The position numbers and the translations under genes are program-made. From Candidatus Adlerbacteria bacterium (GTDB lineage Bacteria; Patescibacteriota; Minisyncoccia; Phycocordibacterales; SBAW01), in the NCBI GenBank assembly GCA_003135635.1, contig PLCJ01000003.1, positions 1-51,086 on the forward strand: a DNA stretch of 51,086 nt. Reading direction: 5' to 3'. Below the pieces are notes generated by a model that saw nothing but the letters and a program-made list of their open reading frames with translations, made no database searches and was not told the DNA's origin. Shown in pieces: positions 9,100 through 50,808 of this stretch. Position 1 is the first letter of the stretch. Every line of letters starts with the position of its first letter.

Positions 9100-11958
9100 A
9101 TGGAAGGGTATGATCACCGGAAAATAGAAAAAAAATGGCAAGAAAAATGGGAGCACGAAAAAGCATTTCAAGCGAAGGACGATACCTCAAAAGAAAAAGA
9201 ATACGTATTAATTGAGTTCCCGTATCCCTCCGGCGATGGACTGCATGTGGGACATATACGCTCCTGGACTGCGCTTGATATCGTAGCCCGTAAAAGACGC
9301 CTTGAAGGAAAAAATGTTCTCTACCCCATAGGATGGGATGCGTTTGGCCTGCCGACGGAGAACTATGCCATTAAAACCGGAAAAGATCCCCGCGTCGTAA
9401 CTAAAGAAAATACAGATATTTTTCGCCGGCAAATAAAATCTCTCGGTCTTTCTTTTGATTGGTCGCGTGAGATCAATACCAGCGATCCCACATACTATAA
9501 ATGGACGCAGTGGATTTTTTTGCAGTTGTATAAGCATGGCCTGGCATACAAAGCAAAAACACTCATCAACTGGTGCCCGAAAGATAAGATCGGGCTTGCC
9601 AACGAAGAAGTGATCGACGGAGCCTGCGAGCGCTGTGGCACCTTAGTTCAAAAGCGGGAGAAAGAGCAGTGGATGCTTGCCATCACCAAATATGCCAAAC
9701 GGCTCTACGAGGATCTGGATAGCGTCAATTACATCGAGCAGGCAAAAATTCAGCAAAGAAATTGGATCGGCCCGAGCGAAGGAGCACAAATTGCCTTTCC
9801 TGTTTTGGGAAGCGATAAAAAAATAGAAGTGTTCACCACTCGCCCCGATACCCTCTATGGCGCCACGTATGTGGTCTTGGCTCCTGAGCATCCCCTCGTG
9901 CTGGAGCTTGCACCACTGACAAAAAATAAGGGGGCAATAGAGACGTATGTCAAAGCGACCCGACAAACTTCCGAAATTGAGCGCACGGCAGAAGCAAGAG
10001 AAAAAACTGGCATCCTCATGGAGGGGATATGTGCGATAAACCCCGGGACGAAAGAAGCAGTTGCTATTTTTGTTGCTGACTATGTGCTGGGGAGCTACGC
10101 TACCGGCGCCATTATGGGCGTACCCCATCACGATGAGCGTGATTTTGAGTTTGCCAAGAGCAAGGGGCTTCCCATAAAAGAAGTTATAGAAGCACTTGTG
10201 GTGCGCGAGCAGGGTGAAGACGCGGTAAAAAAAGATATGCCCTTCACTGAGCGCCGCGCAGTGGTTGCGGTTATCAAGCATCCTTCAAAGGATAAATATC
10301 TCGGCGTGCGCTGGAAGCGCACCGGCTGGCAGGGGTTTGTTATTGGAGGGATTGAGGAAGGGGAAGAAGCACAAGAAGCCGCAAAGCGGGAAGTCAGGGA
10401 AGAGACGGGATATAAAAATATACGCGCTGTGGGAATACTCGGCGGCCCCATACACGCACAGTTCTACCAGACACTCAAAGCCGAGAATCGGTTTGCACAT
10501 TTTCAATTGGTACTCGTGGAGCTGGGCGACGAAGAGAAAACCGAAATAGCACCAGAGGAAAAAGTGTTACATGAATTTCTTTGGCTCAGCCCAGAGAAAA
10601 TGACGGCGTTCATTACGCACCGGGATATGCAAATTCTTTGGGATAGGGTTATCGGAAAGATCTGCTACAGCGGCACGGGAATACTCGTCAATTCAGGACA
10701 ATTTAGCGGCCTGCAAAGCGAAGAAGCAAAGAAAAAAATTACTGAGTTTGTGGGAGGTGTGTGGCTCACCGTCTTTAAACTGCGCGACTGGGTATTCTCT
10801 CGCCAGCGGTATTGGGGCGAGCCCATCCCTATGATCTTGTGCAAAAAATGCGGCTGGGTTCCGGTTCCCGAGGATGAGCTTCCCGTAATCTTGCCTGAAG
10901 TTACTCACTATCAGCCGACCGATACCGGAGAATCACCGCTTGCAACTATTTCACATTGGATACACACCACCTGTCCATCGTGCGGTGGAGAGGCTACCCG
11001 CGAGAGCGATGTGATGCCCAATTGGGCGGGCTCCTCGTGGTACTACTTGCGCTATTGCGATCCCAAAAATACCAAAGAATTTGCTTCGCCGGAGCACTTG
11101 AAATACTGGACGCCCGTTGATTGGTACAACGGAGGCATGGAACACACGACCCTCCACCTTTTATACTCGAGGTTCTGGCATAAATTTCTCTATGACCTCG
11201 CACTGGTACCAACCAGCGAACCGTACGCCAAGCGCACCTCCCATGGGCTCATTCTTGCCAAAGGAGGAGAGAAGATGTCAAAGTCAAAAGGGAATGTCAT
11301 CAATCCAGACGGCCTTATTGAACGCTTCGGCGCGGATTCGCTTCGGTTGTATGAAATGTTTATCGGGCCATTTGATCAACCGGTTATATGGAGCGACACA
11401 AATATTATTGGAACGAGACGTTTTGTAGAGCGAGCTTGGAGATTGATTTCTACCTTCACACAGCACCAAAAAACGGTGATGTCCCCTGAGGCAGTGCGCA
11501 TGATGAGTCACTCAATAGCAAAGATTTCTTCAGATATTGAATCGCTGAAAATGAACACGGCTGTCAGCCAATTGATGATTCTTCTTAATCATCTTGAGAG
11601 CACCACTCCAACAATGCAGGCCCTAGAGACGTTCCTGCGGCTCCTTTCTCCCTTTGCCCCCCATGTAGCAGGGGAGCTTTGGGAGAAAATGGGTACTACC
11701 ACTGCGATGGAAAAAGCAGGTTGGCCTACCACCCCCAAAGAGAGCGCCACAGAGCTTGAGGTAGCTTTAGTGGCGCTCCAAATAAATGGAAAAGTACGCG
11801 CTACGATAGAGCTTCCACTGAAAGCCTCCGAAAGAGAAGCCCTAGAAAAAGCCCGTCTGCACCCCGCCATCTCCCCAAGGCTCGCCCGGGGCAAAGAGGT
11901 GCGCGCGGTATACGTCCCTGGACGAGTCATTAATTTTGTTGTCTCCGACGTGGCTTGA
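9100..11958 (+). CDS. leuS: Leucine--tRNA ligase with a NUDIX domain inserted in CP1
   Basis: PYPSGDGLHVGH (HIGH), GWDAFGLP, TTRPDT, LRDWVFSRQRYWG, GGMEHTTLHL and KMSKSKGN; the NUDIX box lies at 10345-10413. Confidence 0.97.
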   Translation: MEGYDHRKIEKKWQEKWEHEKAFQAKDDTSKEKEYVLIEFPYPSGDGLHVGHIRSWTALDIVARKRRLEGKNVLYPIGWDAFGLPTENYAIKTGKDPRVVTKENTDIFRRQIKSLGLSFDWSREINTSDPTYYKWTQWIFLQLYKHGLAYKAKTLINWCPKDKIGLANEEVIDGACERCGTLVQKREKEQWMLAITKYAKRLYEDLDSVNYIEQAKIQQRNWIGPSEGAQIAFPVLGSDKKIEVFTTRPDTLYGATYVVLAPEHPLVLELAPLTKNKGAIETYVKATRQTSEIERTAEAREKTGILMEGICAINPGTKEAVAIFVADYVLGSYATGAIMGVPHHDERDFEFAKSKGLPIKEVIEALVVREQGEDAVKKDMPFTERRAVVAVIKHPSKDKYLGVRWKRTGWQGFVIGGIEEGEEAQEAAKREVREETGYKNIRAVGILGGPIHAQFYQTLKAENRFAHFQLVLVELGDEEKTEIAPEEKVLHEFLWLSPEKMTAFITHRDMQILWDRVIGKICYSGTGILVNSGQFSGLQSEEAKKKITEFVGGVWLTVFKLRDWVFSRQRYWGEPIPMILCKKCGWVPVPEDELPVILPEVTHYQPTDTGESPLATISHWIHTTCPSCGGEATRESDVMPNWAGSSWYYLRYCDPKNTKEFASPEHLKYWTPVDWYNGGMEHTTLHLLYSRFWHKFLYDLALVPTSEPYAKRTSHGLILAKGGEKMSKSKGNVINPDGLIERFGADSLRLYEMFIGPFDQPVIWSDTNIIGTRRFVERAWRLISTFTQHQKTVMSPEAVRMMSHSIAKISSDIESLKMNTAVSQLMILLNHLESTTPTMQALETFLRLLSPFAPHVAGELWEKMGTTTAMEKAGWPTTPKESATELEVALVALQINGKVRATIELPLKASEREALEKARLHPAISPRLARGKEVRAVYVPGRVINFVVSDVA

Positions 11959-11997
11959 CCGAAAAAGCAAACTGTGATATGAATATTGTACAGTATT

Positions 11998-13041
11998 ATG
12001 GTAGTTAAAGCCGATAAAACAGGGTTTAAGCCAAAAGTGATCGTGAAGCGACTCCTCTCGAGTCTTTCGGAGCGTTCGCGCTCTGTACTTGAGGCTCGCT
12101 TTGGGCTTGGCTCCAACCTTAACCGCACCACCCTTGAGGCGATAGGCAAACGCTACGGCATTACAAGGGAACGTGTTCGCCAGATTGAAAATCACGCTCT
12201 GATATCTCTCAAGAAATCTTCAGCATACAGTGACGCCCACGCAGCATTTGGTGAACTCGAGCGGATCATTACATCTCTCGGGGGAATCATCTGCGAAGAT
12301 GATTTGCTCAACTTTATTACGCAAGACGAGAGCATGCAGAACCATATTTATTTTCTCCTGGTTCTCGGCGATCCATTTAAATACCGCAAAGAAGACGATG
12401 AGATTAATCGCTGTTGGTACGTTGACCCAGAATTGGCCGACAAGGTCAAATCGGCACTCAAGCGCCTCTACGGAGGACTTTCAGATCAGGATTTAATACC
12501 AGAGGGAGAAATGATCAATCGTTTTCTGCGGGAACTTGAAGATATCAACGAAAAATACCTCACCGGAGAAGTGCTCAAACGCTGGCTTTCCGTTTCTAAA
12601 CAAATCGGTAAAAATCCGCTCGGCGAATGGGGCCGTGCCAGTTCGCCCAATGTCAAAACCAAAGGAGTGCGTGATTTTGCGTACTTGGCGGTAAAAAAAC
12701 ATGGCAACCCGCTTCATTTTCGTGAAGTAGCAGAGATGATAGAAAAAATATTTCACCGTGCAGCCCACGTCGCCACTACTCACAACGAACTTATCAAAGA
12801 TGAACGCTTCGTGTTGGTAGGCAGGGGCATGTACGCGCTTAAAGAATGGGGATACACGCAAGGCGTGGTGCGCGATGTCATTCGCAACGTACTGCGCAAA
12901 AGTGGACCCATGAGCAAAGAGCAGATCATTGAGAAAGTTCTAAAGGAGCGTCATGTGAAGCCCGGCACCATCGCCGTGAATCTCCAAAATCAGAAATATT
13001 TCAAAAGAAACAAGGAAGGACTTTTTGTGCTTATACGGTAA
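11998..13041 (+). CDS. DNA-binding protein with an N-terminal sigma-70 region 4-like HTH and C-terminal HARE-HTH/RpoE(delta)-like winged helices
   Basis: RSRSVLEARFGL..TLEAIGKRYGITRERVRQIE is a sigma4 HTH; HGNPLHFREVAEMI..THNELIKDERFVLVGRGMYALKEWG is HARE-HTH-like. No sigma region 2 is seen. The start may be 11986 (TTG) or 11998 (ATG). Confidence 0.8.
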   Translation: MVVKADKTGFKPKVIVKRLLSSLSERSRSVLEARFGLGSNLNRTTLEAIGKRYGITRERVRQIENHALISLKKSSAYSDAHAAFGELERIITSLGGIICEDDLLNFITQDESMQNHIYFLLVLGDPFKYRKEDDEINRCWYVDPELADKVKSALKRLYGGLSDQDLIPEGEMINRFLRELEDINEKYLTGEVLKRWLSVSKQIGKNPLGEWGRASSPNVKTKGVRDFAYLAVKKHGNPLHFREVAEMIEKIFHRAAHVATTHNELIKDERFVLVGRGMYALKEWGYTQGVVRDVIRNVLRKSGPMSKEQIIEKVLKERHVKPGTIAVNLQNQKYFKRNKEGLFVLIR

Positions 13042-23107: not shown

Positions 23108-24562
23108 ATGCTTATCAGCGACATACGTGCAAAGTATTTAGCGTTTTATAAAGAGCGAGGGCATGCGGTCATCCCTTCCTTCCCGCTGGTGCCGAAGAAT
23201 GACTCCTCAACTCTTTTTGTGAGCTCCGGTATGCAGCCACTCATGCCGTATTTTTTGGGCAACACTCATCCCGCAGGAGTGCGGCTTGTCGATGCTCAGA
23301 AATGTTTCCGAGCGGTGGATATCGAGGAGGTGGGAGATAATCGCCACACCACCTTTTTTGAGATGCTGGGGAACTGGTCTTTTGGCGATTATTTTAAAAA
23401 AGAACAATTGTCGTGGTTATTTGAATTTCTGACTAACCCGAAAGAGGGGATTGGCCTTGATCCAGAGCGCCTCTATATAACGGTGTTTGGGGGCGATGAT
23501 GCTCACACCATTCCCAAAGATACCGAGTCAGCGGCGATTTGGAAAAAACTTTTTGCCGATAAAAATATTAAGGCCAAGGAGGTATTTTTGGGAAGCGAAG
23601 AAGAAGGCTACCACAATGGCATGCAAGGAGGCCATATTTTTTATTACAACGTCAAAAAAAATTGGTGGAGTCGCGCAGGAGAGCCGGAGCATATGCCTGT
23701 GGGTGAACCGGGGGGGCCCGACGCTGAAGTATTTTATGATTTCGGCACCCCCCATGACTCACGCTTTGGGGCACAGTGTCATCCTAATTGTGACTGCGGC
23801 CGTTTTGTTGAAATCTGTAATTCCGTTTTTATGCAATACATAAAAAAGGAAGACGGGTCATTTGTCTCACTGTCTAAACATAACGTTGACTTCGGGGGTG
23901 GTCTTGAGCGTCTCGCGGCTGCCAGTAACCACAATCCGGATGTTTTTTCCATCGATGTGCTGAGTGCCATAATCCATGAGCTGCAATCATTATCGGGCGT
24001 ATCATACGAGGATGAATCTCATCGGAAATCATTTCGTATCGTGGCAGATCATATGCGTGCCGCTGTGTTTATGCTGGCCGATGGGGTTATTCCTTCCAAC
24101 ACAGAGGCTGGCTATATCGCTCGCCGTCTTATCCGTCGCGCGGTGCAACATGCCGACAGGTTAGGAATCATCGCTCCCGGCTCTTTAACTCCAATTGTCG
24201 CGGTGATCGCAAAAGAATATTATCAATGGTATCCGGAACTGAGCTCAGAGCGTATGGATGCTATTGCCCAGCTTATTGGACGAGAAGAGGAGCGTTTCCG
24301 TAGCACGCTTGCAGAAGGTATGCGACAACTTGATGTGTGCATTAAAAAGAGAGAAGTCACCGGACATGATGCTTTTATTCTTTTTACGACCTACGGCTTT
24401 CCTTTTGAGTTAACAAAGGAAATCGCCGAAGAGCATGGCATCACGGTTGATACAGAAGCATTCAAAAATGCTATGCGTGAGCACCAGGAACGCTCTCGAG
24501 TCGGAGCTGAGCAGCGATTTAAGGAAGGTCTTGGTGATACTAAGGATAAAAGCAGCACTTAA
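23108..24562 (+). CDS. alaS: Alanine--tRNA ligase, short form lacking the editing and C-Ala domains
   Basis: TLFVSSGMQPL, QKCFRAVDIEEVGD..HTTFFEMLGN, VDFGGGLERL, IVADHMRA, TYGFPFELT. It stops at TAA after 484 aa, before the HTATH editing motif. Confidence 0.93.
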   Translation: MLISDIRAKYLAFYKERGHAVIPSFPLVPKNDSSTLFVSSGMQPLMPYFLGNTHPAGVRLVDAQKCFRAVDIEEVGDNRHTTFFEMLGNWSFGDYFKKEQLSWLFEFLTNPKEGIGLDPERLYITVFGGDDAHTIPKDTESAAIWKKLFADKNIKAKEVFLGSEEEGYHNGMQGGHIFYYNVKKNWWSRAGEPEHMPVGEPGGPDAEVFYDFGTPHDSRFGAQCHPNCDCGRFVEICNSVFMQYIKKEDGSFVSLSKHNVDFGGGLERLAAASNHNPDVFSIDVLSAIIHELQSLSGVSYEDESHRKSFRIVADHMRAAVFMLADGVIPSNTEAGYIARRLIRRAVQHADRLGIIAPGSLTPIVAVIAKEYYQWYPELSSERMDAIAQLIGREEERFRSTLAEGMRQLDVCIKKREVTGHDAFILFTTYGFPFELTKEIAEEHGITVDTEAFKNAMREHQERSRVGAEQRFKEGLGDTKDKSST

Positions 24563-50737: not shown

Positions 50738-50808
50738 TCGGGCCGCCGGGAATCGAACCCGGTCTACATCCACCCCATGGACGCGTACTGCCGGTATACT
50801 ACGGCCCG
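50738..50808 (-). tRNA. tRNA-Pro(GGG)
   Basis: Minus-strand cloverleaf: acceptor CGGGCCG/CGGCCCG, discriminator A, anticodon stem CGTCC/GGATG with loop ATGGGGT, T-arm CCGGG-TTCGATT-CCCGG. CCA is not encoded. Confidence 0.92.

Follow-up and report, generated by a model that had tools for sequence, protein, structure and literature searches.

How a second, predicted catalytic domain comes to lie inside the proofreading domain of an essential synthetase, and what it might do there, is the question raised by the leuS gene of Candidatus Adlerbacteria bacterium. The window analyzed was the whole stretch of 51,086 nucleotides (positions 1 to 51,086 of contig PLCJ01000003.1, assembly GCA_003135635.1). 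Positions 9100 to 11958 on the plus strand form a single uninterrupted open reading frame (ORF) of 952 aa, a bacterial-type leucyl-tRNA synthetase (LeuRS), and this LeuRS carries a complete NUDIX domain nested within its CP1 editing domain. Aminoacyl-tRNA synthetases are among the most conserved enzymes; their accessory domains are usually terminal and are best known from eukaryotes.

The boundaries of the insert were obtained by alignment to Thermus thermophilus (Tth) LeuRS (1h3n), in which query residues 1-364 correspond to Tth 1-363 and query residues 522-722 to Tth 376-581. The insert stands in place of a 12-residue CP1 hairpin loop (Tth residues 364-375), a net gain of ~145 residues. It was defined by the following two features.

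10192 to 10662, plus strand: inserted NUDIX domain with its linkers (aa 365-521, ~157 residues), from the 1h3n alignment, Pfam, AlphaFold2 and Foldseek.
10345 to 10413, plus strand: NUDIX box GGIEEGEEAQEAAKREVREETGY (aa 416-438), the metal-binding/catalytic motif, an exact fit to GX5EX7REUXEEXGU.

The Pfam NUDIX profile (PF00293) was matched at aa 385-501 with 51.6 bits (gathering threshold 21.1, E-value 1.3e-13). The insert was modeled alone with AlphaFold2 to a predicted local distance difference test score (pLDDT) of 89.4 and a predicted template modeling score (pTM) of 0.83, giving a classical NUDIX alpha/beta/alpha domain. Foldseek searches with this model returned a probability of 1.00 to many NUDIX structures, with template modeling (TM) scores of up to 0.72/0.83. 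When the full-length protein was modeled, the NUDIX region had a pLDDT of 86-95 and both linkers of ~89-92, and the insert leaves the beta-hairpin between strands 363-368 and 527-529. Three findings rule out a chance match: the Pfam E-value, the AlphaFold model with its NUDIX fold matches, and the conservation of the domain in over 100 clusters (50% identity clustering).

The original prediction, made from the letters of the DNA, had placed ~150 extra residues at 10195-10665, in a normally short loop late in CP1 between the flanks GLPIKEVI and GILVNSG, with a perfect NUDIX box at 10345-10413. These coordinates were right to within one codon of the aligned 10192-10662, the flanks are present, the box matches its pattern exactly, and 157 aa were found where Tth has 12. 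The same prediction regarded the domain as an addition to a synthetase that keeps its editing residues, which agrees with the host features below: both editing motifs are present and their key residues are invariant.

The host was assigned with the NCBIfam equivalog model TIGR00396 (leuS_bact), which it matched with 939.7 bits, above the cut-off of 548.4. Pfam matches along the 952 aa were to tRNA-synt_1, the editing domain PF13603 (204 bits) and Anticodon_1; the PF13603 match covers aa 220-366, corresponding to profile positions 1-143 of 185, and ends just ahead of the insert. The full-length AlphaFold2 model (pLDDT 87.9, pTM 0.77) was matched by Foldseek to the LeuRS structures of Tth (1h3n, 2bte) and E. 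coli (4aq7, 4arc) with TMt values of 0.75-0.83, the same overall fold. Conservation was read from an alignment (A3) of 92 colinear LeuRS orthologues, which is the basis of all residue counts and identities among orthologues given here. The features of the host are listed in order.

9244 to 9255, plus strand: HIGH motif of the synthetic site (HVGH, aa 49-52); H49, G51 and H52 invariant.
9745 to 10191, plus strand: CP1 editing domain ahead of the insert (aa 216-364), PF13603; 64% mean pairwise identity.
9835 to 9852, plus strand: threonine-rich editing motif TTRPDT (aa 246-251); T246, T247, R248, D250 and T251 invariant.
10129 to 10143, plus strand: editing-site motif HDERD (aa 344-348), including the conserved Asp; H344, D345, R347 and D348 invariant.
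10663 to 10779, plus strand: CP1 editing domain after the insert (aa 522-560), aligned from aa 522 onward with Tth 376 onward; 53% mean pairwise identity.
11272 to 11286, plus strand: KMSKS motif of the synthetic site (aa 725-729); K725, S727, K728 and S729 invariant.

Retention of the aminoacylation motifs (HIGH, KMSKS) together with the editing motifs (TTRPDT, HDxRD) indicates that the host is most likely still a working, proofreading LeuRS. Its catalytic, CP1, anticodon-binding and C-terminal domains align with those of Tth LeuRS at 36% identity, with the HIGH, KMSKS and threonine-rich motifs and the conserved Asp in common. It differs from the Tth enzyme by the 157-aa NUDIX domain in place of loop 364-375 and by the lack of a leucine-specific domain. 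The latter was seen at window positions 11230-11290 (aa ~715-729), where the query runs from aa 722 to aa 725 and has no counterpart of Tth ~582-636 between the HGxIL strand and KMSKS. The leucine-specific domain was likewise absent from the NUDIX-less and Bacilli-labelled relatives that were inspected.

The integrity of the fusion was assessed from source records, base composition and orthologues. The identical 952-aa protein is recorded on 4 contigs from at least 2 samples, one contig being 340 kb in length. GC content and GC at third codon positions (GC3) of the insert (0.507/0.529) equal those of the rest of the gene (0.493/0.521). PF00293 was present in all 120 of the best LeuRS clusters (90% identity clustering), which share 56-69% identity with the window protein in the cases that have a reported full-length alignment, and it was found at the same position in all 92 aligned orthologues. 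An exhaustive search of 50%-identity representatives with aa 330-560 returned 110 clusters at E < 1e-30, mostly LeuRS with the domain in the same place. No sign of misassembly was seen. Misassembly at the insertion ends and poor conservation of the box in orthologues had been named beforehand as grounds for giving up the idea, and the box was found to be strongly conserved.

Within the domain G416, E431, E435, G437 and W495 are invariant, and at least 90% of orthologues keep G417, E434 (88/92), K460, N463, R464, L475, E487 (91/92), H491 and R385. The conserved positions beyond the box form one further feature.

10462 to 10584, plus strand: conserved residues 3' of the box, F455, K460, N463, R464, L475, E487, H491 and W495; 81 or more of the 92 orthologues keep each of them, and all 92 keep W495.

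These eight residues are candidate substrate-binding or catalytic positions. Mean pairwise identity was 74% for the N-terminal part of the Rossmann fold, 43% for the anticodon-binding and C-terminal region, 42% for the NUDIX core and 28% and 16% for the N-terminal and C-terminal linkers of the insert, respectively. The core matches the anticodon-binding and C-terminal region in conservation (42% versus 43%) and keeps its catalytic residues while the linkers drift, and the NUDIX domain is therefore under purifying selection.

Hundreds of uncultured lineages have conserved the fusion. Within Patescibacteria, where its carriers include Paceibacteria and Magasanikbacteria, one large clade has it as a rule; it also occurs in a large group of metagenome-assembled genomes (MAGs) labelled Bacilli, so that the earlier suggestion of its presence in other annotations of the candidate phyla radiation (CPR) was correct and understated. 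The best relatives carry the source names Candidatus Paceibacterota, Kaiserbacteria, Taylorbacteria, Nomurabacteria and Parcubacteria. Species-representative genomes were scanned with a generic LeuRS motif, M[AG]VPAHD[ED], which gives examples rather than frequencies; among the matches listed were also Magasanikbacteria and MAGs labelled Bacilli, Mycoplasmatota, Clostridia and Muribaculaceae, these four being labels as recorded on the MAGs. A search with a Mycoplasmatota-labelled protein returned a second, large and heavily sampled LeuRS lineage (P0285-P0404) with the NUDIX domain at the same CP1 site. Proteins of this lineage are 937-940 aa in length, with variants of ~1100 aa that hold two tandem NUDIX domains; clusters contain up to 599 member sequences, and the sole source name is 'leucine--tRNA ligase [Bacilli bacterium]'. 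Distant as the lineage is, the strict NUDIX box was found in 113 of 120 clusters from it, and KMSKS reads KMGKR. In two proteins labelled Bacilli/Mycoplasmatota (L020 and L023) the zinc-binding cysteines are also apparently missing. The LeuRS backbones of L019 (labelled Bacilli) and L026 (labelled Muribaculaceae) are 48-50% identical to the window protein, about as close as divergent CPR members, which makes whole-gene transfer between lineages plausible.

Longer relatives of this LeuRS (1100-1360 aa) contain extra inserted domains at recurrent positions. The four sites are given in window numbering.

Site A, ~aa 207-243, which takes in the hairpin directly preceding TTRPDT: an additional (second or third) NUDIX domain of the same family, Ham1/ITPase, or an alpha/beta serine hydrolase (PF06821).
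Site B, aa 365-521: the NUDIX domain, as a tandem pair in some proteins.
Site C, ~aa 584-586: alpha/beta hydrolase.
Site D, ~aa 628-633: HAD phosphatase (PF13419).

Across these four sites, nine LeuRS of 940-1360 aa (P0029, P0054, P0067, P0071, P0080, P0095, P0097, P0135 and P0136) carry up to 3 NUDIX domains together with Ham1/ITPase, HAD or alpha/beta serine-hydrolase domains. NUDIX copies inside one LeuRS are only 30-50% identical and are therefore old paralogues; as a rule site A has a variant box and site B a canonical one. The presence of the same NUDIX family at two CP1 loops, in multiple copies and in repeated association with LeuRS, argues that the fusion is not random and reflects a functional link to the synthetase, which might amount to no more than assured co-expression. 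In some CPR LeuRS the NUDIX domain is absent and site B is a short loop. Among them, the 991-aa LeuRS of a Candidatus Kaiserbacteria MAG (L064), has an alpha/beta-hydrolase-like insert at site A, just before TTRPDT, with a GHSFGG motif read by eye.

Outside LeuRS, the nearest homologues of the insert are free-standing proteins of 160-180 aa from uncultured bacteria (P0001-P0013), with 37-49% identity by local BLAST. Aligned with the insert they are 34-43% identical to it, and the alignment takes in all of it, N-terminal strand and C-terminal helix included; they are thus of the same family over their full length and differ in being independent genes with a variant box. None was seen adjoining leuS where gene neighbors were viewed, P0005 lying between SIMPL and miaA-like genes and P0001 on a short contig. 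Other hosts of the family were sought with a query that included the LeuRS flanks and was biased toward LeuRS accordingly: among the best 150 representatives every protein of more than 400 aa, whole or fragment, matched at least one LeuRS segment, and 17 proteins of 154-388 aa matched none. One protein of 379 aa (P0192) has no detectable LeuRS part and contains NUDIX domains of this family in tandem, which share 74% identity.

The reading that we favor, by a modest margin over even chances, is that the insert is an active small-nucleotide pyrophosphohydrolase tethered as a module to a functional LeuRS. An ancestral free-standing NUDIX gene would have been inserted in frame into the surface beta-hairpin loop of CP1, and the fusion would then have been kept under purifying selection across a large clade. 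From its full set of metal-binding glutamates and its family-specific residues, the domain is predicted to be a Mg2+/Mn2+-dependent pyrophosphohydrolase. Its substrate would be a small nucleotide-type molecule, such as a dinucleoside polyphosphate (Ap4A), another nucleoside diphosphate-X, or a non-canonical or by-product nucleotide or nucleoside triphosphate, with long RNA less likely. The domain would thus be a self-contained module permanently held beside LeuRS, to which it may or may not be kinetically coupled.

Candidate substrates were compared by fold, by profile and by charge. The top Foldseek matches of the insert were an uncharacterised E. faecalis NUDIX protein, E. coli RppH the Ap4A hydrolases of Aquifex and Chlamydia, Rv2985/MutT1 (a mycobacterial ApnA hydrolase) and Ndx1 (an Ap6A hydrolase of Tth). 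RppH models were also the most frequent named NCBIfam match, in 18 of 25 family members, all of them weak. For the window domain the best score against the RppH/NudH equivalogs (NF001934-NF001938) was 34.9 bits, below the cut-off of 118. The MutT 8-oxo-dGTPase models (TIGR00586 and NF008044) gave no match to the window protein at E <= 0.01 and one weak match among the 25 family members, and a profile search of PDB sequences with the domain gave a best E-value of 1.8e-7. Membership of the RppH, MutT, NudI, NudE and ADP-ribose pyrophosphatase families was rejected on profile scores far below the cut-offs. With such scores and so modest a best PDB match, the domain lies outside any named NUDIX subfamily; its fold and profile neighbors lean toward RppH and the ApnA hydrolases and do not discriminate further. 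E. coli RppH/NudH and the ApnA hydrolases (Aquifex 3i7u, Chlamydia CT771 4mpo, Tth Ndx1 1vc8, M. tuberculosis Rv2985 9cxx) share the NUDIX fold and the canonical box with the window domain, which differs from them in being only 16-27% identical, below the family cut-offs (35 versus 118 bits), acidic and nested in another enzyme.

The NUDIX domains of the family are acidic on average (mean net charge ~-4.6, pI ~5.9), and small nucleotides therefore suit them better than extended or long RNA. The other inserts of the relatives (Ham1/ITPase, HAD, alpha/beta serine hydrolase) are small-molecule hydrolases also, and this modular set fits a house-cleaning picture. An aromatic residue, F/Y455, lies 17 residues past the end of the box at Y438 (81 Phe and 10 Tyr among the 92). 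ApnA hydrolases have an adenine-stacking Tyr ~16-18 residues after the box; by this spacing the two positions may be equivalent, which is treated as a lead. An aminoacyl-adenylate is a mixed anhydride and not a nucleoside diphosphate-X, and for that reason is an unlikely substrate of a NUDIX enzyme.

Several observations weigh against a tethered small-nucleotide pyrophosphohydrolase. The strict box is missing in ~30% of the best 120 clusters, with the first Glu replaced by Gln or Asp and the Arg by Ala, Met or Lys, and all of the nearest free-standing relatives have a variant box. Such boxes could mean an altered chemistry; they still hold the E..EE triad. The fold similarity is generic, with 455 PDB chains at E < 1e-3, TM scores of 0.6-0.72 and 16-27% identity, and every match to a named NUDIX family in the profile search was far below its cut-off. 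LeuRS is a weak producer of Ap4A compared with LysRS or PheRS, which leaves the Ap4A rationale less than compelling. Finally, the linkers are confidently placed (pLDDT 89-92, in a full-length model of pTM 0.77), and this modeled geometry hints at a fixed orientation on CP1 and perhaps at a tRNA-directed role in place of a free module. Together with the position of both NUDIX sites beside editing motifs, the linkers keep a tRNA-directed role, as 5'-end pyrophosphohydrolysis or decapping or as 3'-end repair, alive.

One tRNA-directed explanation is that the domain is an RppH-like 5'-pyrophosphohydrolase or decapping enzyme, acting on 5'-PPP, NAD or Np4N caps with LeuRS as its RNA-binding platform. 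Its targets could be other RNAs or tRNA(Leu), whose 3' end enters CP1 and has the 5' end as its neighbor. RppH is the most frequent named neighbor by fold and by profile, the decapping effectors AvrM14 and Dcp2 are among the matches, and the domain sits on the tRNA-handling CP1 through confidently modeled linkers, but the RppH models score 34-35 bits against cut-offs of 116-259, the domains are acidic on average where RppH is basic, and the free-standing homologues occur without any RNA-binding partner domain. We consider this explanation unlikely.

Held at a similarly low probability is a broader idea, in which the NUDIX domain belongs to an expanded quality-control platform on CP1, its active site placed to work in cis on the ligands or products of LeuRS. 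Blocks at the ends of tRNA(Leu) (3'-pyrophosphate or phosphate, 5'-cap or triphosphate) might be removed in this way, or nucleotide by-products destroyed where they are synthesised, and in relatives the platform would be extended by the NUDIX paralogues and the Ham1, HAD and alpha/beta-hydrolase modules. If true, multifunctional synthetases of a new class would couple the charging of tRNA to the repair of tRNA or nucleotides in ultra-small cells.

The NUDIX fold might alternatively have no catalytic role and instead sense nucleotides or be a structural or regulatory appendage to CP1 that tunes, for instance, editing or the translocation of the tRNA 3' end. The loss of the first Glu and the Arg of the box in ~30% of the best 120 clusters is in keeping with this, as are the linkers modeled with high confidence. 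We nevertheless think it improbable to a greater degree than an RNA 5'-end activity, as the three Glu of REUXEE and E487 vary little or not at all in either box variant or either lineage, which is hard to explain without catalysis.

Slightly less probable again is repair or detoxification of the tRNA 3' end, a purely inferential idea in which the NUDIX domain, with the HAD and alpha/beta-hydrolase modules of the relatives, unblocks the CCA end for charging. The blocking groups would be a 3'-pyrophosphate from toxic RelA-SpoT homologues, a 3'-phosphate or related adducts. CP1 of LeuRS receives the tRNA 3' end, and the NUDIX sites are hairpin loops beside the editing motifs, A lying just before TTRPDT and B 16 residues after HDERD. 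HAD phosphatases occupy another LeuRS site in relatives, and some NUDIX enzymes cleave ppGpp-type 3'-diphosphates; against the idea, no toxin context was seen near leuS in the annotated part of the window. Least of all, an artefact (a chimeric contig, or a separate NUDIX gene misread as fused) is ruled out for practical purposes by the unbroken 952-aa frame, the identical protein on 4 contigs from at least 2 samples, the matching GC and GC3, and the occurrence of the domain in 120/120 best LeuRS clusters, at one position in the 92 colinear ones and in 110 clusters at E < 1e-30.

Synthetases that bear an accessory catalytic domain are already known; what is unusual here is the nesting inside CP1, the breadth and the modularity. 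A curated case, the fusion of IleRS to an N-acetyltransferase (NCBIfam NF040702, ileS_w_GNAT), is also a class Ia synthetase with an extra enzymatic domain and has its own exception family, but both the synthetase and the accessory enzyme differ from those of LeuRS-NUDIX. An NCBIfam search with the window LeuRS returned no exception model for LeuRS with NUDIX. In animals the LysRS-Ap4A-NUDT2 axis pairs an Ap4A-making synthetase with an Ap4A-destroying NUDIX enzyme. That pairing involves separate proteins, another synthetase and eukaryotes, and offers an analogy to LeuRS-NUDIX. A description of the LeuRS-NUDIX fusion was not found in a search of full-text literature, outside which most subscription journals lie, and only incidental co-occurrences were returned. 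Where named, most source records read leucine--tRNA ligase, leucyl-tRNA synthetase or class I tRNA ligase family protein, which bears on the annotation of these proteins.

The fusion places a second, predicted catalytic domain within the proofreading domain of an essential bacterial synthetase, widely in Patescibacteria and in abundant Bacilli-labelled MAGs. In these reduced genomes the synthetase seems to act as a scaffold that carries hydrolases for nucleotide house-cleaning or repair. The fusion also bears on the question of how auxiliary enzymes stay expressed in organisms whose regulation is minimal. The CP1 pocket of LeuRS is where benzoxaborole-type inhibitors act, and an altered CP1 may matter to them.

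Elsewhere in the window, no other ORF with a NUDIX box and no other synthetase with an insert was found among the ORFs of at least 100 aa; the ORFs assigned to TrpRS (by eye alone), Asp/AsnRS and GluRS have the usual length. An alanyl-tRNA synthetase (AlaRS) at 23108-24562 on the plus strand has only 484 aa and covers PF01411 profile positions 1-435 of 552. It is not followed by an editing or C-Ala domain, and the next ORF is on the opposite strand; this AlaRS may be truncated or split. At gathering thresholds no Rfam family, the tRNA family included, was matched anywhere in the window, and a tRNA-Pro(GGG) was called by ARAGORN at 50738-50808 on the minus strand. Directly downstream of leuS, at 11986-13041 on the plus strand, lies a gene for a protein of ~350 aa with a Pfam match to sigma-70 region 4 and a faint one to HARE-HTH. 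YchF and a DUF5671 membrane protein are encoded directly upstream, and the gene order around leuS is kept on the 340-kb source contig.

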